From sequence record NC_052659.1: a stretch of DNA of 64,000 bases; one strand, written 5' to 3'. Source of the stretch: Escherichia phage nieznany. Made by a program: the position numbers and the translations under genes. The stretch's first letter is position 1; the number at the start of each line of letters is the position of its first letter. The notes below the pieces were generated by a model. It saw nothing but the letters and a program-made list of their open reading frames with translations. It was not told the DNA's origin and ran no database searches. Positions 1 through 13,595 of the stretch are shown here, one piece after another.

Positions 1-28
1 ATTTGAATTTCATCGTGTACAATTTTCA

Positions 29-313
29 TCATGCCTTCTCCCGATCTGCATCCAATTTCAACAAGAAGGTTGCATACTCTTCTGAGCCTTGATGCAAGAA
101 CATACGATAAGAACTTACCAGTTTCTTCGTTGTCGTATAACGTTCCATTTCCCCAACAACACCTCCACCTAGTGTGTAGAGCACAATACCTTCAACTCCA
201 ACATGGGTTACTACTTCAACCAAATCTCTGTTATCCCAATAGTAGTTAGGTGACACAATAAGATCTCCCACTGCCAGTTTAATGTTTGCTACTTCGTCTT
301 GTGAATAGTACAT
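29..313 (-). CDS. hypothetical protein (94 aa)
   Basis: Complete minus-strand ORF; GAGGAG-type SD just upstream of the ATG; no recognisable motif. Confidence 0.5.
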   Translation of the reverse strand: MYYSQDEVANIKLAVGDLIVSPNYYWDNRDLVEVVTHVGVEGIVLYTLGGGVVGEMERYTTTKKLVSSYRMFLHQGSEEYATFLLKLDADREKA

Positions 314-325
314 TTTGTTCTCCTC

Positions 326-619
326 TCACATTAAGACACGTTTTGTATCGATAGGTGCATTATCAAACATGTTAAGAACATTGTCAAGCAGTTTTACTAA
401 TTCATTTGTAATTTGTTCTTTTGAACGGGAGGAAGTGAGCACTTTGCTTTCACCAACGATATGCATAACTTTTATAGGGGCATCTAAAATAATGTTGTGT
501 TGACGATCCTCTTCAAAAGAAGCCAACCATTTCTCATTGTTACCGTGCAAGGCTACAATCACACCAAAACCGTTAATTGTTTCAGAAATATTCTTAGTTG
601 CTAAAGTAATGTTCATCAT
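326..619 (-). CDS. hypothetical protein (97 aa)
   Basis: Complete minus-strand ORF coupled to 29-313; diverges from the rightward block at the 620-733 intergenic region. Confidence 0.5.
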   Translation of the reverse strand: MMNITLATKNISETINGFGVIVALHGNNEKWLASFEEDRQHNIILDAPIKVMHIVGESKVLTSSRSKEQITNELVKLLDNVLNMFDNAPIDTKRVLM

Positions 620-675
620 CTACCTCTCTTGTTAATGTTCATACATGATACCTGAAAATAATTTCAGATCAAGTA

Positions 676-703
676 TTGACATACTTTTTAATCTTGTTAA
701 GAT
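676..703 (+). promoter_or_regulatory. sigma70-like promoter (TTGACA-16-TAAGAT)
   Basis: -35 TTGACA 676-681 and -10 TAAGAT 698-703, about 30 nt upstream of ATG 734. Confidence 0.5.
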
Positions 704-733
704 CAACTCCTACCAAACAAAAGGAGAAAACAA

Positions 734-1177
734 ATGCAAAACATCCAAAACATCAAACTGACTTGGCCCGAAGCTAAAGAAGCAATGAAGGAAGGTAGAC
801 GTGTTGAGCACCGCCATTTTTGTGGTGGCGAATGGTTTGAGATGCGAGATGGTGTTATTCTCGACGAACAAGGTTATAACATGGAAACTTGGTTCAGAGG
901 GGAAGCTTGGCAGGAAGAGGGTTGGTCTGTAATTGAAAAAGAAGACAGTAAGGAAGAAGGCGTGTTGTCTAATGTAGAACGCGAGATGAGGGAAACAAAG
1001 ATACCTGCTTTGGATTTTGTATACCTGGAAGAACTTGTGGCAGCATCTTTTGTAGCAGGAAACCTTTGGAATACACCTGTTAGCCGACTGGAGAACCAAA
1101 ATAACCCGTCTACTCGTAATCACAAGCTTTATAAGGGTAAAGGCCACAACAAATTAAAGAAAGGAAAGAAGAAATGA
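734..1177 (+). CDS. DUF2829-like protein (Tad2-like candidate sponge), Lys-rich C-terminus
   Basis: N-terminal LTWPEAKEAMKEGRRVEHRHF resembles the hallmark F/W-x-EALEALKxGKKVxRxxW opening of DUF2829 proteins; AGGAG SD upstream. Confidence 0.4.
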   Translation: MQNIQNIKLTWPEAKEAMKEGRRVEHRHFCGGEWFEMRDGVILDEQGYNMETWFRGEAWQEEGWSVIEKEDSKEEGVLSNVEREMRETKIPALDFVYLEELVAASFVAGNLWNTPVSRLENQNNPSTRNHKLYKGKGHNKLKKGKKK

Positions 1178-1320
1178 TCTACAAAAACAAGTTCACTGGT
1201 TGTCTTCGTAAATTTATCGATAAGAAAGGGTATGTTTCTCTTGACAACGGGGCTACATGGATAGAGAATGGCGCTTCAGAACAATTGATTAAAGCTTTGC
1301 CTTACTACGAGGAGGTTTAA
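1174..1320 (+). CDS. small hypothetical protein (48 aa)
   Basis: ATG overlaps the upstream stop (ATGA) and its stop TAA abuts the next ATG at 1321; below the ORF-track size cut-off. Confidence 0.35.
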   Translation: MIYKNKFTGCLRKFIDKKGYVSLDNGATWIENGASEQLIKALPYYEEV

Positions 1321-1644
1321 ATGTCAAACAGTCTGTTTAGCGTGTCAATTGCACCACGTGTCAATATCCGTTGTCAGTTTGTTACTTTACCTGGTGTAAC
1401 GCATATCACATTAGAATACGATCCTCGCTCACGAGACAACCCAATCACAGGGAAAATTGATTGTGCTTATGGAGACTTTGTTATGGATCACCAAACCCTC
1501 TTATGCTGTGTGCAACGCTTACAGGCAGGATCTTTATACATCTTTAAGAAAACAGTGTTCCAAGAGATTGCTCAAGCAGTTGAAAGCGGTATGGAGACTC
1601 TTAACGTTATGATTGAAGCAGCCAACCAGAAGGAGGTTTTATGA
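1321..1644 (+). CDS. hypothetical protein (107 aa)
   Basis: ORF preceded by GAGGAGG SD; same-strand packing. Confidence 0.5.
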   Translation: MSNSLFSVSIAPRVNIRCQFVTLPGVTHITLEYDPRSRDNPITGKIDCAYGDFVMDHQTLLCCVQRLQAGSLYIFKKTVFQEIAQAVESGMETLNVMIEAANQKEVL

Positions 1645-1898
1645 CACTTTATCACGTAACCACTGAAGGCGATACCGAAGGTCGTACTACGAAAGATTTA
1701 GGGTATGTTGAAGCAGATTCCCCTGAACACGCAATTAATTATTTGCATTCCATCGGTAAATATGCGACTTATGAATATACTATCTACAAGGTTGAAGTTA
1801 GCCCTATACAAGTGGCAACTCCTATGGTAGAGTTGAAACATCTTAAGGCAAAAGTAAGACCTGGTATAGTGTCCGATTACAAAGGGGAAGTAAAGTGA
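1641..1898 (+). CDS. hypothetical protein (85 aa)
   Basis: AAGGAGG SD 7 nt upstream; start overlaps previous stop. Confidence 0.5.
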   Translation: MTLYHVTTEGDTEGRTTKDLGYVEADSPEHAINYLHSIGKYATYEYTIYKVEVSPIQVATPMVELKHLKAKVRPGIVSDYKGEVK

Positions 1899-2107
1899 GT
1901 GGATGGATTAAAGTATCTGGTACCGAGGATGTTCCTATCGGAGAGTGGCTTGTAATCATGGCAAACGGCAAGAAGGGATTCTGTGAAGTTAACAAAACAC
2001 GCAATGGCACGATAGCTGTTATCAATGGTCATTTTTATTTTGACTTGGCACCTGTGATCGCATACCATGCACTACCAACATATAAAGAGGAGATTAACAA
2101 TGGCTAA
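1895..2107 (+). CDS. hypothetical protein (70 aa)
   Basis: GTG start overlapping the upstream stop; operon context. Confidence 0.4.
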   Translation: MSGWIKVSGTEDVPIGEWLVIMANGKKGFCEVNKTRNGTIAVINGHFYFDLAPVIAYHALPTYKEEINNG

Positions 2108-2423
2108 CAAAGAACCACATGTATACACTGCACTGGTAAAGCACTTGAACAAAGAACGTAACAAGATCATTGCAGATTATCGTAAATTTAAACGTAGTAG
2201 TCTAAATCGTAAATACATGCCACATGCAGCTTTTGACGCTACACGTGCAGTATTTCGTGCAAAGATTGCGGAAATGGATAATCTGCTTAAGCTTGCACGA
2301 TTATCTATTCAGGCATCCAAAGTAACAGGGGTCACTCACTTCTTTGACTTCGATACTAAAGCACTATATGCACCAGAAGCAGGTGAACAATTGATTTCTC
2401 TACTTACCAAAAATAAGTGTTGA
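2100..2423 (+). CDS. hypothetical protein (107 aa)
   Basis: Start moved to the in-frame ATG at 2100, which has an AAGAGGAG SD 7 nt upstream (track ORF begins at 2067). Confidence 0.45.
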   Translation: MANKEPHVYTALVKHLNKERNKIIADYRKFKRSSLNRKYMPHAAFDATRAVFRAKIAEMDNLLKLARLSIQASKVTGVTHFFDFDTKALYAPEAGEQLISLLTKNKC

Positions 2424-2448
2424 CTTTTTTCAAAAAATATGCTACCCT
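2420..2448 (+). promoter_or_regulatory. possible sigma70-like promoter (TTGACT-17-TACCCT)
   Basis: Good -35, weak -10; precedes a 140-nt leader containing direct repeats and a hairpin. Confidence 0.3.
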
Positions 2449-2592
2449 AACCCCGAAGGGTCGAGCGATAGCGAGTATAGATTATGTAATAGATTAATCT
2501 CTATCGTTAGATGTTCGAAGAACAGAGATTTAAGTACTTGTTCTTATCGGTAGATGATCGTAAGATCAAGAACAATAATAGGAGAGTGTGTT

Positions 2593-2790
2593 ATGTTAGT
2601 CAGTGAAATACTACCTGACTCTAATGGTAATCAGATCACTGTTGATTGGTTTCCTGGTACTGGTACACTAGATCTAACTGCTGAATGGTCTGGTGATATT
2701 TATGGAGAAGGTGTATTATCATTATCTACAGAACAAATGATCATCCTTCGTGACTTCTTAATTAGTTTAGATCTAGGAGAAAACAAATGA
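2593..2790 (+). CDS. hypothetical protein (65 aa)
   Basis: Start taken at the internal ATG 2593 preceded by AGGAGAG SD (track ORF begins at 2554). Confidence 0.4.
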   Translation: MLVSEILPDSNGNQITVDWFPGTGTLDLTAEWSGDIYGEGVLSLSTEQMIILRDFLISLDLGENK

Positions 2791-3056
2791 GTAAGACTTC
2801 TATCGAGTTTATCGAGAAATCCCCTGTTCCAAAATTATATCGTTTAGATGAAATTGAACCTATGTCTGTTTTCTACTACTACGATTCAGAAGTAAGTGAA
2901 CAAGAACGGGACTACTACTTAGCTACAGATACAGGTGCAGTGTGCTTAACAGGTTCTCGTGCAGGAGAATACATTGTGACTAGTCGTTTTAATGAAGCAG
3001 ACTACTGTTGGGCTAAGGTTGAAACTAAGATTGTCATCAACATCACTAATCATTAA
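2787..3056 (+). CDS. hypothetical protein (89 aa)
   Basis: Start overlaps previous stop; SD present. Confidence 0.5.
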   Translation: MSKTSIEFIEKSPVPKLYRLDEIEPMSVFYYYDSEVSEQERDYYLATDTGAVCLTGSRAGEYIVTSRFNEADYCWAKVETKIVINITNH

Positions 3057-3078
3057 GACTAATCTGACAAAGAGTTAC

Positions 3079-3108
3079 TTGACATGTGCAAAGCTCTTTG
3101 TGTAGAAT
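3079..3108 (+). promoter_or_regulatory. sigma70-like promoter (TTGACA-18-TAGAAT)
   Basis: -35 TTGACA 3079-3084, -10 TAGAAT 3103-3108; upstream of ATG 3139. Confidence 0.5.
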
Positions 3109-3138
3109 AAAGATTCACTTACTAAGGAGATTTTATAA

Positions 3139-3336
3139 ATGGCTACAAAGAAACAGAAAATGAAATGTCTTACTCTCACTGAACTGGGTCAAGCTTCCAA
3201 CTGCGTTACTGTTGGTAAGATTTATTCTACAGTTCTTGATAAAGACAACAACAGTTTTACTTTCAAAGATGATAACGGAAACCCTCAAGTTGGAATCTAC
3301 CCTTCCTGTGCTTTTGGTACTTGGGAAAAAGTGTAA
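3139..3336 (+). CDS. hypothetical protein (65 aa)
   Basis: TAAGGAG SD upstream. Confidence 0.5.
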   Translation: MATKKQKMKCLTLTELGQASNCVTVGKIYSTVLDKDNNSFTFKDDNGNPQVGIYPSCAFGTWEKV

Positions 3337-3379
3337 CTAATTAGAGGGTATACTTGTAAACAAGATTAAGGAGGCATTT

Positions 3380-3553
3380 ATGGGAGATAAACAAAGTAAC
3401 ATCCGTTACGCGCTTTATGGAAGAATGGGTGCAGATTGTGAATGGATGCTTCTGTCGCAACGTATACCCTCTTACAAAGAGGCTCTTGAAAAAAGAGACT
3501 ACTACAAACAAACATGGCGTTTTGTCATTTGTAAACACTATTTGGAGGCGTGA
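3380..3553 (+). CDS. small hypothetical protein (57 aa)
   Basis: ATG at 3380 follows a strong TAAGGAGG SD; stop 3551-3553 couples to the next start; preferred over the overlapping track ORF 3417-3641. Confidence 0.4.
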   Translation: MGDKQSNIRYALYGRMGADCEWMLLSQRIPSYKEALEKRDYYKQTWRFVICKHYLEA

Positions 3554-3861
3554 TGAGTACATTATCATTAGCAGTTACGGTGCACCAGTATTACGAAGAA
3601 GCTGTAAAAGATTCAGAAAATCCATCTACATTAGTATTTGAAGATCGGACTGGTCTTAAATGGGTAGAATCTTGTGGTGAACTTTACTTTTGGTATCCAC
3701 AAGGTTGCACAAGTAATTCTAATTTGTATAGTTATGAACTGGAGTATCGTGCGCCTGTAGACGAAGATGATAATTACATCATGTATTATGTTAATAATGG
3801 TTGCGGTGAAATGTTTAATGTAGTATTCTCTAAAGCCTTGAAGTCCGACGAGGAGATGTGA
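3553..3861 (+). CDS. hypothetical protein (about 102 aa)
   Basis: GGAGG SD; start ATG 3553 (or GTG 3550). Confidence 0.45.
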   Translation: MSTLSLAVTVHQYYEEAVKDSENPSTLVFEDRTGLKWVESCGELYFWYPQGCTSNSNLYSYELEYRAPVDEDDNYIMYYVNNGCGEMFNVVFSKALKSDEEM

Positions 3862-4220
3862 TGAGAAAAGTGCTGTTTGCCTTGCTGTTATTAGCCTCTG
3901 CTGGTGTTTTTGCTCGTGACGGCTTTAAGGTTGGGGCAGATCGCACTAAATTCTTCACATGGTTCGGAGGTGAAGCACTTTACCAAGACGGTAAAGATAA
4001 AATAAAATGTAAGTATGTAGAAACATTAAAAGGTGTGGATGATTGGGGTGATGCTTATCAAGCAACAGGCTTCTCTTGTAAGAAACACCTTTACATTGTA
4101 GTAAAAGAGTTTCAAGATATAAATAAACAACTTTTTATTTTAGTAGATCCTAGCAAATTTGATGAACGGACAGCTTATGAAGTTGACATGTTCTTAGAAT
4201 ACAAGAAGGAGGAAAAATGA
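3858..4220 (+). CDS. secreted/periplasmic hypothetical protein with signal peptide
   Basis: N-terminus MMRKVLFALLLLASAGVFA is a classic signal peptide; GAGGAG SD. Confidence 0.5.
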   Translation: MMRKVLFALLLLASAGVFARDGFKVGADRTKFFTWFGGEALYQDGKDKIKCKYVETLKGVDDWGDAYQATGFSCKKHLYIVVKEFQDINKQLFILVDPSKFDERTAYEVDMFLEYKKEEK

Positions 4221-4579
4221 GAGAAATGATTGTAGATGTTGTTATTAATGGTCAACGTTATGTGCCTGTTGTAGAGAAAGCTGAACCAGATGCTTTAGAT
4301 GTTGTTTTTGAAGACGATGATCTTGGAACTGTTACTGTGCGTGAATATTTCAGACGACTGCTCTCTACACTTTGGGAAGAAGAAGACAGTTTCAGTGGAA
4401 AACGCCCTTTCGGTAACTCTTGCTGGCAGTTCGATTTGATTATTGGTTTGATCGATGCTGGCTACCTGGAAGGTAAAGTTTATCGTGATGAAGATGGTGG
4501 TATAGAAGATACCGACTATGATCGTGAAGAAGCAGATAAACTCATCCAGGGTCTGATCGCACGTATGTGTTTAGGTTAA
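4217..4579 (+). CDS. hypothetical acidic protein (120 aa)
   Basis: AAGGAGG SD; start overlaps previous stop. Confidence 0.5.
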   Translation: MREMIVDVVINGQRYVPVVEKAEPDALDVVFEDDDLGTVTVREYFRRLLSTLWEEEDSFSGKRPFGNSCWQFDLIIGLIDAGYLEGKVYRDEDGGIEDTDYDREEADKLIQGLIARMCLG

Positions 4580-4580
4580 T

Positions 4581-4949
4581 ATGAAGGTATTAAACTTTTA
4601 CCATTTAGGCAAAACAATCCCAGATGGTGCTGTTTATATTGGTAGAGCAATGCCACATATGGGACTAAAAGCCTCTAAGTTTGCAAACCCTTTTAAGTTA
4701 AAAGATGATGAACCACGAGGATCAACTATACAAAGGTATAAAGAGTGGTTGTGGGAGCAAATTCGTTGTGGTAAGATCACTCTTGAAGATTTATTAGAGT
4801 TAGAAGGGAAAGATTTAGTTTGCTTCTGCTCCCCTCAACCTTGTCATGGAGATGTATTGATAGCAGCCGTGGCCTGGGCTAGAAAAGAGTGGGACAAAAG
4901 GCATCCTACTTATGTAGACAATTATTGGATTTGGGAGGAGAATTTTTGA
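4581..4949 (+). CDS. DUF4326-like protein
   Basis: Motif LVCFCSPQPCHGDVL matches the conserved Cys/HGD signature I associate with DUF4326; N-terminal YIGRAMP. Confidence 0.4.
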   Translation: MKVLNFYHLGKTIPDGAVYIGRAMPHMGLKASKFANPFKLKDDEPRGSTIQRYKEWLWEQIRCGKITLEDLLELEGKDLVCFCSPQPCHGDVLIAAVAWARKEWDKRHPTYVDNYWIWEENF

Positions 4950-5299
4950 AAAATATTATTGATGTAGATGTGTTTGGTATCACAACACTACAAGACAAAC
5001 AAGCAACATTGTATTACCATAAAAAAGAGGACCAAGCTTACATCTACATCGGGGCAGAAAAGTTTGGTGTCGGAGATATGGTTTTAAATGTTGAAGGAGA
5101 TCTCCCTTTAGAACAAAAGTTGAAAGTTTTTCGTTTCACAGGAGATGTTAAACTAGACGGCGTTATCGCAATCCTACAAGAAGACCATTATTATATGGTA
5201 ACTTTCGTTACTCCTGCTTTCTCTGGTCTTAATGGAGAAGAAGCTCTTAATGATGTTATTATCTTAAAGATTGGTAATGCTCTAAACGATGTAAACTAA
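4946..5299 (+). CDS. hypothetical protein (117 aa)
   Basis: TTG start at 4946 preceded by GGGAGGAG SD and overlapping the upstream stop (track ORF begins at 4889). Confidence 0.4.
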   Translation: MKNIIDVDVFGITTLQDKQATLYYHKKEDQAYIYIGAEKFGVGDMVLNVEGDLPLEQKLKVFRFTGDVKLDGVIAILQEDHYYMVTFVTPAFSGLNGEEALNDVIILKIGNALNDVN

Positions 5300-5306
5300 A
5301 GGGGGA

Positions 5307-5822
5307 GTGAGTATGTTCTTTGATGCAAATTCTCTTTTTGTATCTACAGCAGGGCAGTCTGCTGTTAATGCAGAATTTGAGGAAAGAGAAGAATGGATTG
5401 ATAATCACAACTACGATCCAAGTAATTTAAACTGGTGCAGTTTGGATGTTGGTAATCTTAGTAGAGATAATGCACTTAGAGCATACTACTCTGTATATAC
5501 TGTTGACAATCTTTATCAATACTACGTGTTTCGTAGTCTTATTGTTAATCTTAATTTAGCTGGACGTTTAAAGAACAATAAGGCATTCACATTGGGACAT
5601 TATATTCCCTTCCGTAAAGGTGGTGTGCATTTTCCATGTAATTGGATTATTCAAACACGAAAAGAAAACAGTTTAGCAGGAGACACCATGCCAAGATTTA
5701 AAGATAAGTGGACATGGGAAAAACAAATGGGATACATTAATGCACATTTGCCACCTAATCTAAAAGAACCTTACGCCAGCAGAGCTAAGGAAATGATGAG
5801 GATTGTCAAGAGTTTTTATTAA
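5307..5822 (+). CDS. hypothetical protein, possible degenerate HNH-like nuclease
   Basis: GHYIPFRKGGVHFPCNW partly matches the HNH pattern H-x-IP-xxx-GG-xxxx-N but lacks the second Cys/His pair. Confidence 0.3.
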   Translation: MSMFFDANSLFVSTAGQSAVNAEFEEREEWIDNHNYDPSNLNWCSLDVGNLSRDNALRAYYSVYTVDNLYQYYVFRSLIVNLNLAGRLKNNKAFTLGHYIPFRKGGVHFPCNWIIQTRKENSLAGDTMPRFKDKWTWEKQMGYINAHLPPNLKEPYASRAKEMMRIVKSFY

Positions 5823-5836
5823 GAGAGGAGAAATAC

Positions 5837-7429
5837 GTGTCTACACAATTGAGTTTTACACCTACCGACGAACAATACGCTATTGAAAGTGGGTATCAAG
5901 AAAATCGTTTCGTTACAATTCAAGCTAAATCTGGATCAGGTAAAACGTCAACACTGTATATGTTGGCTAATGGCACAAATGATAGTATTCTATACTTGGC
6001 ATTTAACAAAAGTATGGCAGAGGAAGCTCGACGTAAAATGCCACCTAATGTTATGTGCCGAACGCTACATTCTATCTGTTATCAGCGTCTTCCACAAAAC
6101 CTTCGACACAAATTATCTCGTCCAGAAGGTCAATATGTTAACGTAGCTGGAACTGGTAGTGAGATTGCCAAAAAATTCAAGATTCAGAACTTGATTGATA
6201 AGAATGGTAAAGTGCTACTGACTCGTGCAATGATTGGGTTAATGGTAAAACAAACTTTAGCTAAATATGAGTTTTCTGACGATGAACATATTGGACATAA
6301 ACATTTTCCTAAAGTGCATATGTCAGATCTTAAACGTAAAAACATCAACGAACAAAAACTTATTAACGAAGTTGTTAAATATGCGAAGCAACTTTGGCGT
6401 GAGCGTATTGATCCTAAATCAGAAACCATTATGACTCATGACACCTATGTGAAACTCTTTGAATTGAGTAAAGAAGATTTAGGATACGATATTATTTTTG
6501 GAGATGAATTCCAGGATGTTAACCCTGCATTCCTGTCTATCCTTCGCAATGCTAAATCGGCTAAACGTATTGTTGTTGTGGGTGATGAATTTCAGAGTAT
6601 TTATCAGTTCCGTGGAAGCCAGAACATGATGAAGCAAACAGCTACATATGGGGTTGAGTTGCCTCTGACAGCTTGTTTTCGCTTTGGTCCTAAAGTTGCG
6701 GACATTGCTAATGCGATCCTTTCTGATCGCTCACCTCTGAAGCATCCGCTGGTAGGAAAAGGTTATGATACTGTCACTGGAAGTTTTCATTCTGATGTGG
6801 TAGATTATAGTAAACCTTACACCATTATTTTCCGTAAAAATTTGACTCTGTTGCTCGAAGCTATGGACCGAATTGCTAACGGAGAAGAAATTATTATTAA
6901 CGTAGATACCAAAGACTTCATTTCTATGGTTGATAGTGTTAATGCTTTACGTAGAGGTGATTTGGACAAAGTTAAGCATGAGACAGTTCTACCTTACACT
7001 TCTTGGGAAGAATTTGTAGAGTGTGCAGAATCAGATCCTGATGCAAAACGACTTTTAAACATTGTTGTTTCTGGTAAAGCTAATAATATTGCATACACTC
7101 TACGTATGCACCGTAACTCTCCAACGGCTAAAGTTACTTTAACTACAGCCCATAAATCAAAAGGTTTGGAGTGGGATCAGGTTATTGTTGCAAATGACTT
7201 CCCTTCCAATTATGATAAGAAGGGTGAGTGGGTAGGTCTTGAAGAATCAGAACGAAATCTTCTGTATGTTGCACATACACGTTGTATTAAATGTCTGCAA
7301 TGGAACCGGACTGTTCAAGAGATTTTAGACATGCATCGTTTAGGTAAGAGCACGGCTCCTGTATCCGAAGAAGATAAGCTCATAGCTGCCCTTGCTCGTA
7401 AGATTAATCAAATCAGAGAGGATCGTTAA
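5837..7429 (+). CDS. UvrD/Rep/PcrA-like superfamily 1 DNA helicase
   Basis: Walker A AKSGSGKTST, motif II GDEFQD, motif III VVVGDEFQSIYQFRG; GTG start with GAGGAG SD. Confidence 0.8.
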   Translation: MSTQLSFTPTDEQYAIESGYQENRFVTIQAKSGSGKTSTLYMLANGTNDSILYLAFNKSMAEEARRKMPPNVMCRTLHSICYQRLPQNLRHKLSRPEGQYVNVAGTGSEIAKKFKIQNLIDKNGKVLLTRAMIGLMVKQTLAKYEFSDDEHIGHKHFPKVHMSDLKRKNINEQKLINEVVKYAKQLWRERIDPKSETIMTHDTYVKLFELSKEDLGYDIIFGDEFQDVNPAFLSILRNAKSAKRIVVVGDEFQSIYQFRGSQNMMKQTATYGVELPLTACFRFGPKVADIANAILSDRSPLKHPLVGKGYDTVTGSFHSDVVDYSKPYTIIFRKNLTLLLEAMDRIANGEEIIINVDTKDFISMVDSVNALRRGDLDKVKHETVLPYTSWEEFVECAESDPDAKRLLNIVVSGKANNIAYTLRMHRNSPTAKVTLTTAHKSKGLEWDQVIVANDFPSNYDKKGEWVGLEESERNLLYVAHTRCIKCLQWNRTVQEILDMHRLGKSTAPVSEEDKLIAALARKINQIREDR

Positions 7430-7681
7430 ATGGCAGGGTATCACATAACAAATATTAAGAAGCAACCTTATGGCAGTATAGAAAAGATTAAAGAGGAAGT
7501 AGAAGAACTTTTTGATGCTGTTGAACAGGATTGCAAAATAATGCAACTTGTTGAATTGTCAGATATTATAGGTGCTGTCGAGGGAGTTTTAGAACAACAG
7601 TTCCCAGGTACGACTTTACAAGATTTGATCATTATGTCAAACATTACTAAACGTGCGTTTCGCACAGGAGGAAGGTCATGA
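7430..7681 (+). CDS. MazG-like nucleotide pyrophosphohydrolase domain protein
   Basis: EEVEELFDAVEQ followed by ELSDIIGAVEG fits the two acidic helices of the MazG fold; 83 aa. Confidence 0.4.
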   Translation: MAGYHITNIKKQPYGSIEKIKEEVEELFDAVEQDCKIMQLVELSDIIGAVEGVLEQQFPGTTLQDLIIMSNITKRAFRTGGRS

Positions 7682-8235
7682 ACACAGGTGTGATTGCCGA
7701 AGCCATCCAGAGTTATGGACGCTTTGCTGAAATGTTAGATGTTCCTTATTTAGTGGATGCAGATATTTTGGCATTCACACTGCCACCTGGCAAAGAAGAT
7801 GCTCCTTTGGGGCATCCTAATGGGAAGTTTTATGTTGCCAGTGCCGAGCAATCATTCTTGCAAATGGAAAAGGATGGCTACGAGTTTATCGCTGGTCATC
7901 CCTACATGGCCCTGACACCATGTTACCGCACAGAGGAAGTGTTGGATGATTCTCACTTCAACATCTTCTTGAAGCTGGAGTTGATTGAGTTCTATCCCAG
8001 CTTTGGTGAAGTGAAAGAGTATGCCGAAGAAATGCGATACTTCTTCTGGACCTACTACAAAGTCCAAACAAGAATTGTAGAAACAGAAATAGGGCTTGAC
8101 GTGGAAGACATGAATGGTTTAGAATTAGGGTCATTCGGAACAAGATTGTCCCCACAAGGTCATCCATATATTTATGCAACAGCCATAGCCGAACCTCGTG
8201 CATCTATGGCAATTAACAGGAGGAATCATGATTAA
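7678..8235 (+). CDS. hypothetical protein (185 aa)
   Basis: Coupled ORF; no recognisable motif. Confidence 0.5.
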   Translation: MNTGVIAEAIQSYGRFAEMLDVPYLVDADILAFTLPPGKEDAPLGHPNGKFYVASAEQSFLQMEKDGYEFIAGHPYMALTPCYRTEEVLDDSHFNIFLKLELIEFYPSFGEVKEYAEEMRYFFWTYYKVQTRIVETEIGLDVEDMNGLELGSFGTRLSPQGHPYIYATAIAEPRASMAINRRNHD

Positions 8236-9613
8236 TAAATTTGCCCGTAAACAGGAAGTTGCTGAAGCAGCACGTCGCGCTGGTGTGTATGACAAATTGT
8301 GTGAAGGTATTGTGAAGGTGTATGGCTGGGAGGGAGAAGATGATCCAACCTGTTCAGGTGATTTTGCAATGAACGATATGACCTTCCCATATATTTCCTA
8401 CAATGCCTCCACTGGTGAAATAAACGGTGTAACCAGCACCAGTGTTGATCGTTATCCAGATGCAGAACAAACCACAGGAGGTTACATGTTAGATCTGATT
8501 CTTAAGAAATCAGGGTTATTGGGAATCGAAGACGTTTTCGTAGATGCAGATAGTTTATCATTAGGAGATGTTGTTAAACTACTGGTAGACTTTAGATTTG
8601 CAACAGGTAAAAGCTTCTGGAAGCCAGAAGATGCTGAACGTTTGAAGACAATCGATCCAAGTATGTATGAACTGCCACAATATAAAGATAAACAATTCCG
8701 CAAGGTTATCTTCTTTGATCGTCAAGCAGGCTTAGATGCAATGCATATTGAAGTTGGGGATTTACCACGCCCACACTCTGCTGCTACTGGTGATCGCGGC
8801 CTTGTAGAAGTCACGGCTCAAGAATTTAAAAATATGTTTGCTGCGAAATACGATGAAGCTGCGCCTGTGCCAAGTATTGAGGAGCAAGAGGAAGAACAGT
8901 TTGTAGCGGAAGATACTGCATTTGAATATCTGCCGAACACAGGTGTTATGCCTTCAGAAGATTTCGTGCAGGTTCGCTTCAACAATGGTCAAACAGATGT
9001 TGCTAAGGGAACAGTATTCACTTGGAATATCGACAATCTGGAAGAGTGGGCGATTAAAGAATACTTCATTCTCCCGCGCACGGCAAAATACAACTATAAT
9101 AATGGTGGACACCGCCCTTGTGGTGGTCACGTAGAAGTTCTCTTTCGTGACGGAACTACGGATAGTGGATCGGCTACGCATTTCACTTGGGGTCATGTTG
9201 GATATGATCGGGATATTGTTGGTTGGCTTCCAACTAACAACCCTAAACCACGTTACCGTAAGCCTCGTAAGAAGCCTCCGGTAGGTAAGAAGAGTGTCGT
9301 TCGTGTCCTCTACACTACGCAACAGACCTACACATTTAAAAATGTGGTAGACGTGCAAGTAACCGAGGAGCGAGTTTATATCCAATATGATCGTGAAGTT
9401 ACAGAGGGTATCAAAGAATCGGTTACTACCGAAATTGAAAATAAGCTTGTTATGGCAATCATTGTGGAAGAAAGTAAAGTAGAGAACGGTAAAGCCTATA
9501 CTGTTCGTGATAGCTTCTTGCGTAATATCGATGGAACCTGGGATTACAATGGACACGATGGGACCGCTGTGAAGAACGGTAAGATCATGGGAAGACAATT
9601 CCTCTCCAAATGA
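8228..9613 (+). CDS. hypothetical protein (461 aa)
   Basis: Start moved to ATG 8228 (AGGAGG SD, ATGATTAA overlap with upstream stop); no recognisable motif. Confidence 0.5.
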   Translation: MINKFARKQEVAEAARRAGVYDKLCEGIVKVYGWEGEDDPTCSGDFAMNDMTFPYISYNASTGEINGVTSTSVDRYPDAEQTTGGYMLDLILKKSGLLGIEDVFVDADSLSLGDVVKLLVDFRFATGKSFWKPEDAERLKTIDPSMYELPQYKDKQFRKVIFFDRQAGLDAMHIEVGDLPRPHSAATGDRGLVEVTAQEFKNMFAAKYDEAAPVPSIEEQEEEQFVAEDTAFEYLPNTGVMPSEDFVQVRFNNGQTDVAKGTVFTWNIDNLEEWAIKEYFILPRTAKYNYNNGGHRPCGGHVEVLFRDGTTDSGSATHFTWGHVGYDRDIVGWLPTNNPKPRYRKPRKKPPVGKKSVVRVLYTTQQTYTFKNVVDVQVTEERVYIQYDREVTEGIKESVTTEIENKLVMAIIVEESKVENGKAYTVRDSFLRNIDGTWDYNGHDGTAVKNGKIMGRQFLSK

Positions 9614-9623
9614 TAAAACTTAA

Positions 9624-9646
9624 AGGCGCACTTTGCGCCTTTTTTG
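9624..9646 (+). terminator. rho-independent terminator
   Basis: 7-bp stem AGGCGCA/TGCGCCT with 3-nt loop followed by TTTTTT. Confidence 0.6.
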
Positions 9647-9716
9647 ATTTCCCTCAAAGCTTTTTTCGGTTGGAAGAGGTAGAATAATAGTTCTACTCAC
9701 AAAATAAGGATTAATA

Positions 9717-10589
9717 ATGAAAGATTTGTACCAAGATGTTTTTTCTTTTTTAGATCGCACTTCAGAAACATACACTAGAGAGAATGCAAACAAACCTTCC
9801 CACCTCGTTAACACGCATAGGGATCTCTTGGCGGGGATTTTAAGCAAACATATGGCAATGACACAGATACTGCCAAAAAACTTGTCAGAATGGCATACAG
9901 AAGGTTTTGGACATATTCACGACTTGGATTATCTGCTCTCTCCTCTTACAAACTGTTGTCTTGTTAATTATCAAGATATGTTAGAGAATGGTTTTAAGAT
10001 CGGTGCTGCACAGATAGAAAAACCAAAATCTATTGGAGTAGCTACTACCGTGCTAACTCAAATCATCCAAGCTGTTGCCTCCAGTCAGTATGGAGGTCAG
10101 ACGTGTGCGCACATTGATAAAGGTCTTAGTCCTTATGTTGAAGCTAGTTTCCTTAAAAACATGGAGATAACCAAACGTCGCTACGGTTGTTATGCAAGGA
10201 AAGAAGCCCTAGAAATGACCGAACAAGATGTATATGACGCTATGCAAACTCTTTTGTATCAGGTTAACACTTTAATGAGTGTTAATGGACAATCTCCTTT
10301 TATTACAATCAGTATGGGTCTGGATACCTCTGTTTTTGGCAGAATGATCACAGCTAACTATCTTAAAGTGCATAGTAACGGTCTAGGTAAAGATCATGTA
10401 ACGCCTGTATTCCCTAAAGTTATTTTCTTTTTACAAGAAGGTGTTAACATGAAACCTAGTGATCCTAACTACGACCTTAAGCAACAAGCTTTGGCATGTT
10501 GTGCTGATCGTATTTATCCAGATTTTATTTCTGTTCCTTTGAACAAAGAAGTTACGGGGTCAGCAGATGGCACTGTTACGAGTATGGGT
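9717..10589 (+). CDS. nrdD: anaerobic ribonucleoside-triphosphate reductase NrdD, exon 1
   Basis: GFGHIHDLDY and downstream class III RNR-like sequence; reading frame runs into the intron and stops at 10598; exon ends on a U (..ATGGGT). Confidence 0.7.
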
Positions 10590-11360
10590 AAACTATAACT
10601 GCTCATGTAAAATCTGCCTAAACGGGGGAACTCTCAACAGAGACAATCCCGTGCTAAACGTAACAGAACTCCCAACACAGAAGAAGGGGGGTACTGATAT
10701 GAGAAAACAAATTCGTGATTTTGAAGGGTATGAAATTGACGAGCTTGGAAATGTTTATTGTACCAGGTATAAGGATGAAAGAATCCTTCGCTCGTGGGAA
10801 GAAATAAACACAGGATACCAACTTGTCAGAATACGTAAAAACAAGAAAACTGTTTGCTTTCGGGTGCACAGACTTGTAGCTGAAGCGTTTTTACCCAATC
10901 CAGACAATTTACCTTATGTGAAGCATAAAGGTGACAATAGGAAAGACAACAGTGTATACAATCTTGAGTGGGGATCTTGTCCAGACAACACGCAAGAGGG
11001 TTACGATAATAACTGTTATGCTTTCTACACAAGGTGTCACAGTGTAAAAGCTACTCATAAGGCTACTGGTGAAGTTTTTTACTTTAAAAGTCTGAGATGT
11101 TGTGCTGACGCTTTAGGGTTGGACAGAAAAAGAATATCTGCAATCTTAAAGCAAGGAGCACCAAATAATTATGATTATGAGTTCTGTTACGAAATGCCTA
11201 ACGACTAGCTGTGATGAATGTAGCAGCGTAGGGTGTAAGCCTATGACACCCCAAATGGTAGACATGCTTTAAGCATGAAGATATAGTCTGATCTGCATGG
11301 TGACATGCAGCAGCACGTAATGGTGCGGGAGTGGCCTTGCGAGCCACTTTGAACATAATG
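10590..11360 (+). mobile_element. group I self-splicing intron in nrdD with internal HNH endonuclease ORF
   Basis: Conserved core AAATCTGCCTAAACGGGGGAACTCTC...AGACAATCCCGTGCTAAA (10609-10657) closely resembles the T4 td/nrdD intron core; candidate IGS GCCTA pairs with exon end UGGGU; intron ends on G 11360; splicing restores ..TSMG|CRSFLSYY.. Confidence 0.7.
10699..11208 (+). CDS. HNH homing endonuclease (NUMOD4 plus HNH_3 type), intron-encoded
   Basis: FEGYEIDELGNVY (NUMOD4-like), VHRLVAEAFLPNP and KHKGDNRKDNSVYNLEWGS (HNH); ATG 10699 with AAGGGGG SD; lies wholly inside the intron. Confidence 0.8.
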   Translation: MRKQIRDFEGYEIDELGNVYCTRYKDERILRSWEEINTGYQLVRIRKNKKTVCFRVHRLVAEAFLPNPDNLPYVKHKGDNRKDNSVYNLEWGSCPDNTQEGYDNNCYAFYTRCHSVKATHKATGEVFYFKSLRCCADALGLDRKRISAILKQGAPNNYDYEFCYEMPND

Positions 11361-12302
11361 TGTAGAAGTTTCTTGTCATACTATGCAACAGAGCAAGGAG
11401 AAAAATATGATGGACGATTCAACCTTGGAGTAGTTTCTATCAACTTGCCTCTGATTGCTGCGGAAGCGAGAAGTAAAGGAGAATCTTTCACCGATCTTCT
11501 TAATAAACATATGGAGATAGCCTACGATGCTCACATGCTACGTGTAAACCGTATCAGACATACCAAAGCATCTGAAAACCCTATTCTTTTCATGGAAGGG
11601 GCTTTAGCGCGTTTAAATGCCAACGATGAAATTGGTGCTTTGTTTGAAGGTGGTTATGCTTCTATTAGTATTGGTTATGTAGGTCTTGCCGAAGCTTTGG
11701 AAATCCTTTATCCAGAGGAAAAAGATAAAAAGGAACTAGGTAAAAACATTCTGCAACATATGAAAGATGTGTGTGCTGTGTTTAAAGAACGATCTAAGTT
11801 GGCATTTAGTCTTTATGGAACTCCAGCAGAATCCTTGTGCTATAAATTTGCAACAGCTTTAAATGAAAAATATCCAGGTCTGGTAGAAAGAGACTATCTT
11901 ACTAATTCTTTTCATCAACCTGTATGGTTGGTAACAAATCCTTTTGAAAAATGGGATTATGAAGCAGGTTTTGCACAGATTAGCAATGGTGGTAACATAA
12001 GTTATGTCGAAACACCAAACTTAAAGAATAACTTAGAAGCTTTGGAGACTTTAGTAGACTACGCTTATGAACATATTCACTATTTTGGTATTAATCAGCC
12101 CGTGGATCAATGCTTTAAGTGTGGTTTTCATGGAGAATTTAAGGCAACGGCTAAAGGGTTTGAGTGTCCTAATTGTGGCAACCATGAAGAAGAAACTATT
12201 TCTGTAGTTAGACGTGTATCAGGGTATCTTTCTGCCCCTAATTCACGGCCTTATAACAAAGGTAAAATGCAGGAAGTTTTGCAAAGGGAGAAACATCTTT
12301 GA
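11361..12302 (+). CDS. nrdD: anaerobic ribonucleoside-triphosphate reductase NrdD, exon 2
   Basis: C-terminal zinc ribbon CFKCG..CPNCG and glycyl-radical motif RRVSGYL. Confidence 0.8.
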   Translation, partial: CRSFLSYYATEQGEKYDGRFNLGVVSINLPLIAAEARSKGESFTDLLNKHMEIAYDAHMLRVNRIRHTKASENPILFMEGALARLNANDEIGALFEGGYASISIGYVGLAEALEILYPEEKDKKELGKNILQHMKDVCAVFKERSKLAFSLYGTPAESLCYKFATALNEKYPGLVERDYLTNSFHQPVWLVTNPFEKWDYEAGFAQISNGGNISYVETPNLKNNLEALETLVDYAYEHIHYFGINQPVDQCFKCGFHGEFKATAKGFECPNCGNHEEETISVVRRVSGYLSAPNSRPYNKGKMQEVLQREKHL

Positions 12303-12769
12303 ATTTTGCAGGATATGAACCTGTAGATCTTATTAATGGTGAGGGAGTTAGGTGCTCCCTCTGGGTTAGTGGTTGTAGCCACGGTTGTCGTGGCTGTTTT
12401 AACCAAAAAGCCTGGTCTTATTCTTATGGGAAACCGTTTACTGACGAAAATGTAGAGCAAGTTTTAAAAGATTTGTCAAGACCATTTGTAAAAGGTTTAA
12501 CAATTTTAGGAGGAGAACCATTAGATCCGCAGAATATTCACAATGTTAAAAGCCTTATAGAAAAGGTTAGAGACGTTTATGGGTCAAGCAAAGATATAAT
12601 GGTGTATACAGGATATACTTTTGAGGAAGTGCCTTTGTATATTAAAAATCTTGTTGACATTATTGTAGACGGAAAGTACGAAATAAACAATCCAACTACA
12701 AAACCTTTCAGAGGGTCAGATAATCAAAGATTATGGACCAAAACGGCAAGTGGTTGGCAATCAGATTAA
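12299..12769 (+). CDS. nrdG: anaerobic RNR activating protein NrdG (radical SAM)
   Basis: CSHGCRGCFN radical-SAM cysteine motif; directly downstream of nrdD; TTG start. Confidence 0.8.
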   Translation: MNFAGYEPVDLINGEGVRCSLWVSGCSHGCRGCFNQKAWSYSYGKPFTDENVEQVLKDLSRPFVKGLTILGGEPLDPQNIHNVKSLIEKVRDVYGSSKDIMVYTGYTFEEVPLYIKNLVDIIVDGKYEINNPTTKPFRGSDNQRLWTKTASGWQSD

Positions 12770-12782
12770 CTTAGGAGGTTTC

Positions 12783-12974
12783 ATGGTTACATATTTTGCT
12801 GTAGGGGATAGAGTAGGGACGGCAGGAGAACTTTTGAAGAACAGTGATCGGGACGTTAAGGACATTCTTGCAACCCTTGTGGATATTTTACAAAGAAAAG
12901 AGTTGCTTTCTGATCGAGATGTTGCTAAATTACTTGATATCGGAGGAGATGAACTTCAAAGACTTCCATTTTAA
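12783..12974 (+). CDS. hypothetical protein (63 aa)
   Basis: ATG 12783 with TTAGGAGG SD (track ORF begins at 12750). Confidence 0.4.
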   Translation: MVTYFAVGDRVGTAGELLKNSDRDVKDILATLVDILQRKELLSDRDVAKLLDIGGDELQRLPF

Positions 12975-12989
12975 GTGAGGAGATAAGTA

Positions 12990-13595
12990 ATGCAACATAG
13001 TGTAGTAGTCAACATGCCGAATAGTGGGGATAAATCTTTTGGTGTTCCTGCTAAAAAAGTATGGAAAGCCCATTTTCATCTTACTTTATCTAACGTTAGT
13101 TCTGAAGAGTTGATGAAAGCAGCTAAGATTATTGGTGCCAAATGCACAACAATTGATTTACATCGGGATACAAAGTCTCAACGTGATCGTATGTTAACAA
13201 AGTATCAAAGCGATCTCGACACTACTTTAATGTTGCAGTGTGTAGAAAAACTTGAGAATGCAGGTTTCAATGTTGTTCGTTACAAACTGGAACGAATGTT
13301 TAAACATGTTGCCTGTGTTCTTTTCATGGATCTAAGTAAAGAAAATTATGGAGAAGTTCACATTAAGACTTCAGCAAGTGATCCCGAAGTAGAAACAAAC
13401 TTCTTCCGTATTTCTTCTAATGCTGAAGAAATTGATTACCGATTTTATAATGCTCGCTTATATTCCGCAGAAGATAAGTTGCGTTTCAATGAAGCGTATG
13501 ATATGCTCTTGAACAGTGGGATACAGATAAAAGGCTACCACATAGAACAAGTTGTGGTAGATAGTAACTTAAATCTTGATGCGTGGTGGGCCTAG
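12990..13595 (+). CDS. hypothetical protein (201 aa)
   Basis: GAGGAG SD; single HLTL motif only. Confidence 0.5.
   Translation: MQHSVVVNMPNSGDKSFGVPAKKVWKAHFHLTLSNVSSEELMKAAKIIGAKCTTIDLHRDTKSQRDRMLTKYQSDLDTTLMLQCVEKLENAGFNVVRYKLERMFKHVACVLFMDLSKENYGEVHIKTSASDPEVETNFFRISSNAEEIDYRFYNARLYSAEDKLRFNEAYDMLLNSGIQIKGYHIEQVVVDSNLNLDAWWA

Follow-up and report, generated by a model that had tools for sequence, protein, structure and literature searches.

What does the 122-residue protein encoded at positions 4581 to 4949 of the window (the whole 64,000-nucleotide stretch of Escherichia phage nieznany DNA analysed here) do for its phage? Databases already contain an identical protein, YP_009986280.1 from Escherichia phage nieznany, under two different names, 'DUF4326 domain-containing protein' in UniRef and 'ribonucleotide reductase NrdA-like' in RefSeq. 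Protein, family and functional prediction were all known beforehand. What is new here is the recognition of T4 NrdA.1 as a DUF4326 protein, which most simply explains a propagating misannotation, together with quantified residue conservation, negative profile tests against NADAR and RapZ-C, a bridge to DUF488, and the lack of support for a Tad2-like call made on a neighbouring gene.

Identity of the gene and its two names

The reading frame and product size given in an earlier note on this DNA were borne out by the ORF list and the sequence (Table 1). The gene starts with ATG and stops with TGA at 4947-4949, and the AGG triplet found upstream may act as its ribosome-binding signal. The preceding ORF (4217-4579) ends with TAA at 4577-4579, which leaves a spacer of 1 nt before the ATG. 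In the annotation of phage phAPEC8, where the orthologue is gp037, the next gene overlaps the DUF4326 gene by 4 nt at the stop codon. We conclude from this spacer and this overlap that the gene belongs to a run of closely packed genes with one orientation. Many Phapecoctavirus genomes carry the locus with 98-99% DNA identity; they belong to E. coli myoviruses of the phAPEC8 type, with about 150 kb of DNA, in the subfamily Stephanstirmvirinae. Rfam and tRNA scans of positions 1-13000 of the window gave no match, so that no structured RNA overlaps the gene.

Table 1. Coordinates of the gene, of its main features and of the T4 homologue (window positions unless an accession is given)
Feature	Position	Strand	Basis or remark
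Candidate sigma70-type promoter, TTGACA-18-TAGAAT	3079..3108	+	11/12 consensus matches; best plus-strand site in 1-8000
AGG, Shine-Dalgarno-like triplet	4573-4575	+	read from sequence; 5 nt before ATG
DUF4326 protein CDS, 122 aa	4581..4949	+	stop codon included; ORF list and sequence
N-terminal conserved block Y19-I-G21-R22 ... S32-x-F34-x-N36-P37-F38, residues 19-38	4635..4694	+	conservation and AF2 model
R46 codon, arginine starting helix 1	4716..4718	+	invariant in 49 sequences, 93% in 157 domains
Signature motif L79-V-C81-F-C83-S-P85-Q-P-C88-H89-G90-D91-V-L93, LVCFCSPQPCHGDVL	4815..4859	+	presumed active or metal site
C-terminal tail, residues ~101-122, ending Y-W-I-W-E-E-N-F	4881..4946	+	clade-specific, low model confidence
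T4 nrdA.1, annotated hypothetical protein	NC_000866.4 5672-5998	-	PF14216 match

Assignment to DUF4326, which the earlier note had made and for which it had proposed a profile search, is secure. That search gave a strong match to Pfam PF14216 (E 9.4e-22, 77.9 bits, gathering score 25), running nearly end to end over profile positions 5-81 of 82. The conserved motif on which the note had relied, LVCFCSPQPCHGDVL, is present at residues 79-93, far above chance, and its Cys/His residues are near-invariant in homologues. Matches were also obtained to PHROG 464, of unknown function (E 9.5e-43), and to PHROG 24867, called 'NrdA-like' (E 1.9e-28), and none to NCBIfam models or to the PADLOC models of defence systems. 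A word-indexed search returned 153 homologues at E<=1e-3, of which at least 120, all of those among the matches listed, had been annotated as PF14216 before.

The family was said to be widespread in phages, and it is: tblastn matches were found in at least 1,820 of 50,697 phage records, a minimum of 3.6%, as well as in 31 of 72,556 plasmids. An exhaustive profile search collected 23,967 clusters at 50% identity with E<=1e-3, and 9,470 with E<=1e-10. DUF4326 proteins in BFVD come from tailed phages, haloarchaeal viruses, pithoviruses, marseilleviruses and pandoraviruses, and the domain also occurs in bacterial chromosomes. We found no solved structure and no published biochemistry for DUF4326, and no functional study of PF14216 or nrdA.1 in the literature.

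We then turn to the second name. Weak matches in T-even phages led, in T2, to a 108-aa ORF lying between td and a 2,265-bp gene in the position of nrdA. Gene nrdA.1 of T4 has the same position and size, and its product (NP_049846.1) is a clear DUF4326 member, with 78.7 bits against PF14216 and 39% identity to the nieznany protein over the motif half (E 1e-12). In both phages the homologue sits immediately upstream of nrdA. The nieznany protein itself was rejected as a large subunit of ribonucleotide reductase (RNR; NrdA), as it has no RNR domain and DUF4326 is its sole Pfam match. Since nrdA.1 is a name given by position, its product is a DUF4326 protein and the nieznany protein is devoid of an RNR domain, the 'NrdA-like' label is most simply explained as a carry-over of the T4 gene name. 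The label 'ribonucleotide reductase NrdA-like' of RefSeq and PHROG needs correcting, because it spreads through phage annotations. With T4 NrdA.1 as a member, the function of the family can also be tested directly in the phage that has the best-developed genetics. As a separate observation, the 2,265-bp gene at the nrdA position is mislabelled in the T2 record.

Should the label nevertheless be taken at its word, the protein would be related or accessory to RNR. Such a role could draw on the name itself, on the place of the homologue in T4 and T2, on nrdD, which lies 4.8 kb downstream of the DUF4326 gene in the window, and on a Gly_radical gene adjacent to DUF4326 in one metagenomic phage contig. 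We find it hardly credible, given the missing Pfam RNR domain and the probable origin of the name, and because no RNR gene was found near DUF4326 in Kuttervirus, Pakpunavirus, N4-like phages or plasmids.

Some genes further downstream deserve a remark of their own. Gene nrdD (9717-12302, plus strand), for the anaerobic ribonucleotide reductase, is interrupted, compared to the contiguous 1,815-bp gene of phAPEC8: its flanks are 98.4% (9717-10589) and 97.5% (11369-12302) identical to that gene, and about 779 bp are inserted between them, from about 10590 to 11368. The inserted DNA carries a 213-aa ORF (10567-11208) whose product resembles, by eye, an HNH-type homing endonuclease, and no group I intron was detected at the insert at the Rfam gathering threshold; a mobile intron and the insertion of a free-standing endonuclease are both conceivable. 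Two plus-strand genes, 7678-8235 and 8198-9613, are publicly labelled 'histidyl tRNA synthetase' (PHROG 4806) and 'ribonucleotide reductase' (PHROG 15930), and neither has a Pfam match at E<=0.01. These labels may be unreliable, like 'NrdA-like'.

Conserved residues and predicted fold

Conservation was measured on 157 DUF4326 domains taken from representatives of 50%-identity clusters, and on a second alignment of 49 sequences. In the signature motif, the conserved positions of the larger sample are C81 (98%), C83 (98%), P85 (94%), C88 (99%), H89 (97%), G90 (86%) and D91 (76%). The N-terminal block is conserved to a similar extent, with Y19 at 94%, G21 at 97%, R22 at 96%, S32 at 83%, N36 at 96%, P37 at 94% and F38 at 87%. 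Position 34 is a tryptophan in 69% of the domains and a phenylalanine in 20%, the latter being the residue of the nieznany protein. Overall, the positions of this block and of helix 1, R46 and Y53 included and position 34 excepted, are 83-97% conserved, and all the residues concerned (Y19, G21, R22, S32, F34, N36, P37, F38, R46 and Y53) are present in the nieznany protein. In the 49-sequence alignment, N5, G21, N36, R46, L74, C81, C83, C88 and H89 are invariant. One departure was noted in passing: the first DUF4326 copy of the relative P0147 has lost the histidine (CWCPPDQPCS) and kept all three cysteines.

The four near-invariant residues C81, C83, C88 and H89 are all of a type that binds metal, and could form a zinc site, structural or catalytic. 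The length of the loop between C83 and C88 points in the same direction. The spacing C-x-C-x4-C-H is found in 146 of the 157 domains and an x5 spacing in 6, and close relatives such as P0009 have, in the 49-sequence alignment, an x8 variant (KQPNKEVA); such a variation in length (4, 5 or 8) would be tolerable in a metal-binding loop. The adjacent C88 and H89 would, however, be an unusual pair of ligands for a single metal ion.

We also considered that the protein may not be an enzyme at all, and that it would be a small early protein which binds and blocks, stoichiometrically, a host protein of defence or metabolism. Its size of 122 aa and its position within a block of small uncharacterised ORFs of early type would suit such a role. 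So would its tail, whose motif [YH]-W-x-W-E-[ED] is common to the closest relatives and absent from most of the DUF4326 family, and whose end, YWIWEENF, may be a docking motif. A protein that inhibits one host target would normally have a narrow distribution and evolve fast. Here, the same polar residues are kept in tailed phages, giant viruses, archaeal viruses and bacteria, and the domain occurs in tandem repeats and in fusions with enzymes, which makes a stoichiometric inhibitor improbable. Because near-invariant polar residues of catalytic type are shared across phages, giant and archaeal viruses, plasmids and bacteria, an enzyme fits better than a lineage-specific inhibitor.

A model of the protein was built with AF2 from the 49-sequence alignment (mean pLDDT 92.3, pTM 0.82). 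It contains a strand at 3-5, a short strand at about 18-19, helices at 46-62 and 68-72, a strand at 79-81 and a helix at 89-107; pLDDT drops to 65 and 45 in the final two blocks of 10 residues. The N-terminal conserved block corresponds to predicted strand 2 and the loop that follows it, and the signature motif runs from the end of strand 3 through the Cys-rich loop into the first turn of helix 3. In this model the Cys loop, residues 82-88, is placed between strand 79-81 and the N-terminus of helix 89-107. The predicted order of strand, Cys loop and helix is one expected of the rhodanese-phosphatase superfamily, to which DUF4326 may belong, and Cys-phosphatases and rhodaneses use this strand-loop-helix geometry. 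The fixed-length loop canonical in the superfamily, C-x5-R (or C-x4/5-[RT]), is absent: the DUF4326 loop reads C-x-C-x4-C-H-G and has no arginine.

Searches for relatives of known structure were less productive. The structure prediction advised in the earlier note did give a confident model, and the structural neighbours sought with it did not appear, as Foldseek found no match with E<1 in the PDB. Sequence searches of the PDB, with the single protein or with a profile, returned only chance matches (a GST at E 0.055, Der p 1 at E 1.2). A search of viral structures in BFVD returned only other DUF4326 proteins, so that it gave no functional lead.

Some sequence support was obtained for a link between DUF4326 and DUF488. 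The Pfam models DUF488-N3a (E 2.6e-06) and DUF488 (E 8.5e-05) match the DUF4326 protein P0178, searched alone, at its residues 172-206, PDLLKEIPKLRGCTLVCFCQTNQECHRRIIIKIYK, which make up the strand, Cys loop and helix of the first DUF4326 domain of that protein. No DUF488 match was found in the Pfam scan of the nieznany protein itself. For RapZ-C, an alignment of 107 C-terminal-domain sequences was built from E. coli RapZ; its comparison with DUF4326 in hhalign gave a probability of 0.17%; with alignments as shallow as these (Neff 3.7-4.3), this does not disprove homology. By eye, the order of the motifs is colinear with the DVRFLPNPH ... GCTGGKHRS of RapZ-C. Burroughs and Aravind (2023) reportedly grouped DUF4326 with RapZ-C and DUF488 as one clade.

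Homology to NADAR was tried with an alignment of E. coli YbiA, 13 homologues and the NADAR domains of the fusion proteins described below. Compared by hhalign to two DUF4326 alignments, it gave probabilities of 0.04% and 0.18%, which leaves homology to NADAR without support from sequence. We consider it very improbable that the protein is a minimal, divergent NADAR-like N-glycosidase removing ADP-ribose from bases.

Fusion partners and genomic surroundings

Domain partners were surveyed in 35 long relatives. NADAR was found in 6 of them (P0125, P0136, P0138, P0140, P0143 and P0145), always N-terminal to DUF4326; P0136 has the architecture Macro-NADAR-DUF4326, and P0140 has two NADAR domains. 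The DUF4326 domains of P0136, P0138 and P0140 are 52-58% identical to that of P0125. SLOG domains came next, of the YAcAr type in 4 of the 35 proteins and DprA-like in another count of 4 of 35; P0122 and P0152 are DUF4326-SLOG fusions, and P0153 combines SLOG with two DUF4326 domains. Single fusions were found to ASCH (P0204) and to a DnaA C-terminal HTH (P0261), and a ParB-like segment was recognised by eye in P0232. Two or three DUF4326 domains occur in tandem in P0121, P0124, P0127, P0133, P0141, P0147 and P0178. Lysine-rich, low-complexity linkers give some of these tandem proteins a eukaryotic look.

The fusion partners are united by the release or the binding of ADP-ribose or phosphoribose, and it is on this ground that DUF4326 was predicted to process terminal phosphates on the ribose of ADP-ribose or of its breakdown products (PMC9503650). 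Other published predictions point the same way, and note in addition fusions to components of replication and of restriction-modification (R-M) (PMC7824862). Finally, ORF83, an anti-Avs protein of the SLOG/LOG-like type predicted to be a LOG-like AMP phosphoribohydrolase, has amoeba-virus homologues with a C-terminal DUF4326 (bioRxiv 10.1101/2025.06.06.658234). These fusions are the sole link, an indirect one, of our protein to validated anti-defence or defence families, to which no match was found with PADLOC or NCBIfam. The possibility raised by the earlier note, a counter-defence or nucleotide-processing factor, agrees with the fusions and with the published predictions.

These observations lead to our preferred reading, to which we give a probability of roughly 0.45: DUF4326 would be a Cys/His enzyme that hydrolyses or transfers a phosphate or phosphoribosyl group of a substrate derived from ADP-ribose, made early in infection and serving in NAD+/ADP-ribose conflict. 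The main rival takes the Cys3-His set as the zinc site evoked above, and has the domain act on nucleic acids or their ends, at the interface of replication and R-M, and not on free ADP-ribose metabolites. The fusions to DNA-related modules (the DnaA HTH, ASCH and ParB-like partners), together with the published replication and R-M fusions, speak for this second possibility, as do the helicases of SNF2 or UvrD type, primases and SbcCD-like nucleases that are often neighbours of DUF4326 in phages. It is also favoured by the locus of P0125. This protein of 514 aa, made of an unassigned N-terminal domain, NADAR and DUF4326, is encoded, within the locus 5715-14450 of contig L002, just ahead of a type I R-M operon hsdM-hsdS-hsdR (N6_Mtase, Methylase_S, HSDR_N/ResIII), which suggests that DUF4326 also works in cellular islands of defence or conflict. 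Against it, the commonest identifiable partners among the 35 long relatives are the NADAR and SLOG domains, which process ADP-ribose or nucleotides, and on balance we regard action on nucleic acids through a zinc site as unlikely, while ranking it above the inhibitor, NADAR-like and RNR readings, which are weaker.

Early expression is plausible for the nieznany gene. A candidate promoter (Table 1) sits in the gap upstream of a same-strand run that extends from 3139 to beyond 9613 and includes the DUF4326 gene. The packed run behind this sigma70-like site, and the occurrence of homologues in the pre-replicative part of the genome in T4, N4-like and other phages, are the grounds on which an early block can be proposed. 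The gene is surrounded by small uncharacterised ORFs, and it does lie upstream of a helicase, as the earlier note had it: a UvrD-type helicase gene is found at 5837-7429, 0.9 kb downstream. For the neighbour that the same note had called Tad2-like, found at 734-1177, the assignment to Tad2/DUF2829 has no support in these searches, with no Pfam match at E<=10 and no sequence match to a solved structure (best hit CutA, E 0.27); the sole matches of this plus-strand ORF are PHROGs 22208 and 3474, neither of known function. Among 20 neighbouring ORFs scanned with Pfam, only DUF7247, Phage_tudor and DUF7325 were found, besides matches below threshold. One of the latter concerns the 83-aa product of 7430-7681 (plus strand), just downstream of the helicase, which matches PRA-PH, a MazG-like family of nucleotide pyrophosphohydrolases, at E 0.0074 and 17.1 bits for a cutoff of 21.3; a small NTP pyrophosphatase of the all-alpha type is a possible identity for it.

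Separate genes for the fusion partners were sought in the window. A six-frame search with an HMM of the six fused NADAR domains found no NADAR, no Macro or SLOG gene was detectable in the 64 kb, and DUF4326 itself is present in a single copy. Likewise, phmmer searches of the six-frame translation of the window with the NadR, PnuC, NMNAT, NAPRTase and PncA proteins encoded at the loci of relatives returned nothing.

Ten phage, plasmid or chromosomal contexts of DUF4326 were sampled, and no fixed neighbour was found across them. The neighbours are td and nrdA in T4 and T2, and SbcCD-like nuclease genes in Kuttervirus. In Pakpunavirus the gene belongs to a block of small ORFs upstream of a primase/helicase gene; T4-like contigs have dCMP deaminase and other nucleotide-metabolism genes nearby, and metagenomic phage contigs have primase and SNF2 or UvrD helicase genes. 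On a conjugative plasmid, DUF4326 is found among cargo genes. In the N4-like phage PBM-2, a SLOG/YAcAr gene (40.4 bits) is found four genes upstream of DUF4326, a fusion partner thus recurring as a neighbour, and the two belong to the early block, ahead of the RNA polymerase genes of the phage. What these contexts share is a pre-replicative position, in the company of genes for replication and nucleotide metabolism, without a fixed partner.

NAD salvage genes were found near DUF4326 at two loci, and remain anecdotal. On the metagenomic phage contig encoding P0039 (L021 5106-9251), a NadR-type gene and a PnuC transporter gene flank the DUF4326 gene within about 2 kb; the NadR-type product matches AAA_28 and has, by eye, an N-terminal nucleotidyltransferase motif of the GHxxxI type. 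On the bacterial chromosome encoding P0080 (L011 11449-15673), genes for CTP_transf_like (NMNAT), NAPRTase and isochorismatase (nicotinamidase) proteins are 3-7 kb away, past a TnpB insertion. NadR-like genes are present in 720 phage records.

Proposed activity and relation to known systems

If DUF4326 is the Cys/His enzyme that we favour, its compact alpha/beta domain would hold a site built from two blocks of sequence. The first would be the C81-x-C83-x-P85-x-x-C88-H89-G-D loop, lying between a beta-strand and the N-terminus of the long helix; the second would comprise R22, S32, N36-P-F38, R46 and Y53, of which R22, R46, N36 and Y53 may complete the pocket. The Cys/His cluster would serve to hydrolyse, or to transfer, a phosphate or phosphoribosyl group carried by molecules derived from ADP-ribose, possibly those that NADAR, Macro and SLOG/LOG enzymes release. 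Candidate substrates are ADP-ribose, its 1''- or 2'-phosphates, ribose-5-phosphate, or groups of this kind on the ends of nucleic acids. Made before replication, the protein could then neutralise or recycle the products of a host immunity based on NAD+ or ADP-ribose. We infer each of these elements (catalysis, chemistry, substrate, timing and counter-defence role) from the conserved residues, the fusions and the gene settings described above.

A bolder version, which we hold to be doubtful, is that DUF4326 represents a new class of Cys/His enzyme, possibly assisted by zinc, that destroys or recycles an ADP-ribose-derived immune product. Such a product might be a signal of the TIR/Thoeris type, a phosphorylated ADP-ribose, or the residue left on a nucleic acid after the action of NADAR or Macro. 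If true, this would mean a widespread and unrecognised counter-defence activity, carried by 3.6% or more of the sequenced phages, with T4 among them through its NrdA.1, and by giant viruses. In any case, a huge family that is repeatedly fused to ADP-ribose-processing enzymes is a good target in the search for a new activity, and for NAD+/ADP-ribose conflict between viruses and hosts.

How does the nieznany protein compare with known systems? Within the Pfam DUF4326 family, it has the same C-x-C-x4-C-H-G-D and Y-I-G-R / S-x-[WF]-x-N-P-F motifs and belongs to the same size class of stand-alone phage proteins; it differs from most members by its additional, clade-specific tail of about 20 residues, aromatic and acidic. 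In T4 NrdA.1, the N-terminal block has diverged, with NIHRG/GNYV in place of YIGR/NPF, as seen in the T2 orthologue. The DUF4326 modules of the NADAR fusions closely resemble the nieznany protein, with all conserved residues kept, whereas the latter is a single domain, unlike the NADAR, Macro and SLOG fusions as a whole, which are known from phages, giant viruses and bacteria (Iyer, Burroughs and Aravind 2021 and 2022; for the ORF83 homologues, the EVADES preprint). Compared to NADAR proteins such as YbiA (PF08719, ADP-ribose N-glycosidases), it has neither the NADAR invariant residues nor a match to the profile, and is about 60 residues shorter. With DUF488 and RapZ-C, finally, DUF4326 shares a like arrangement of strand, Cys loop and helix, with a later histidine.
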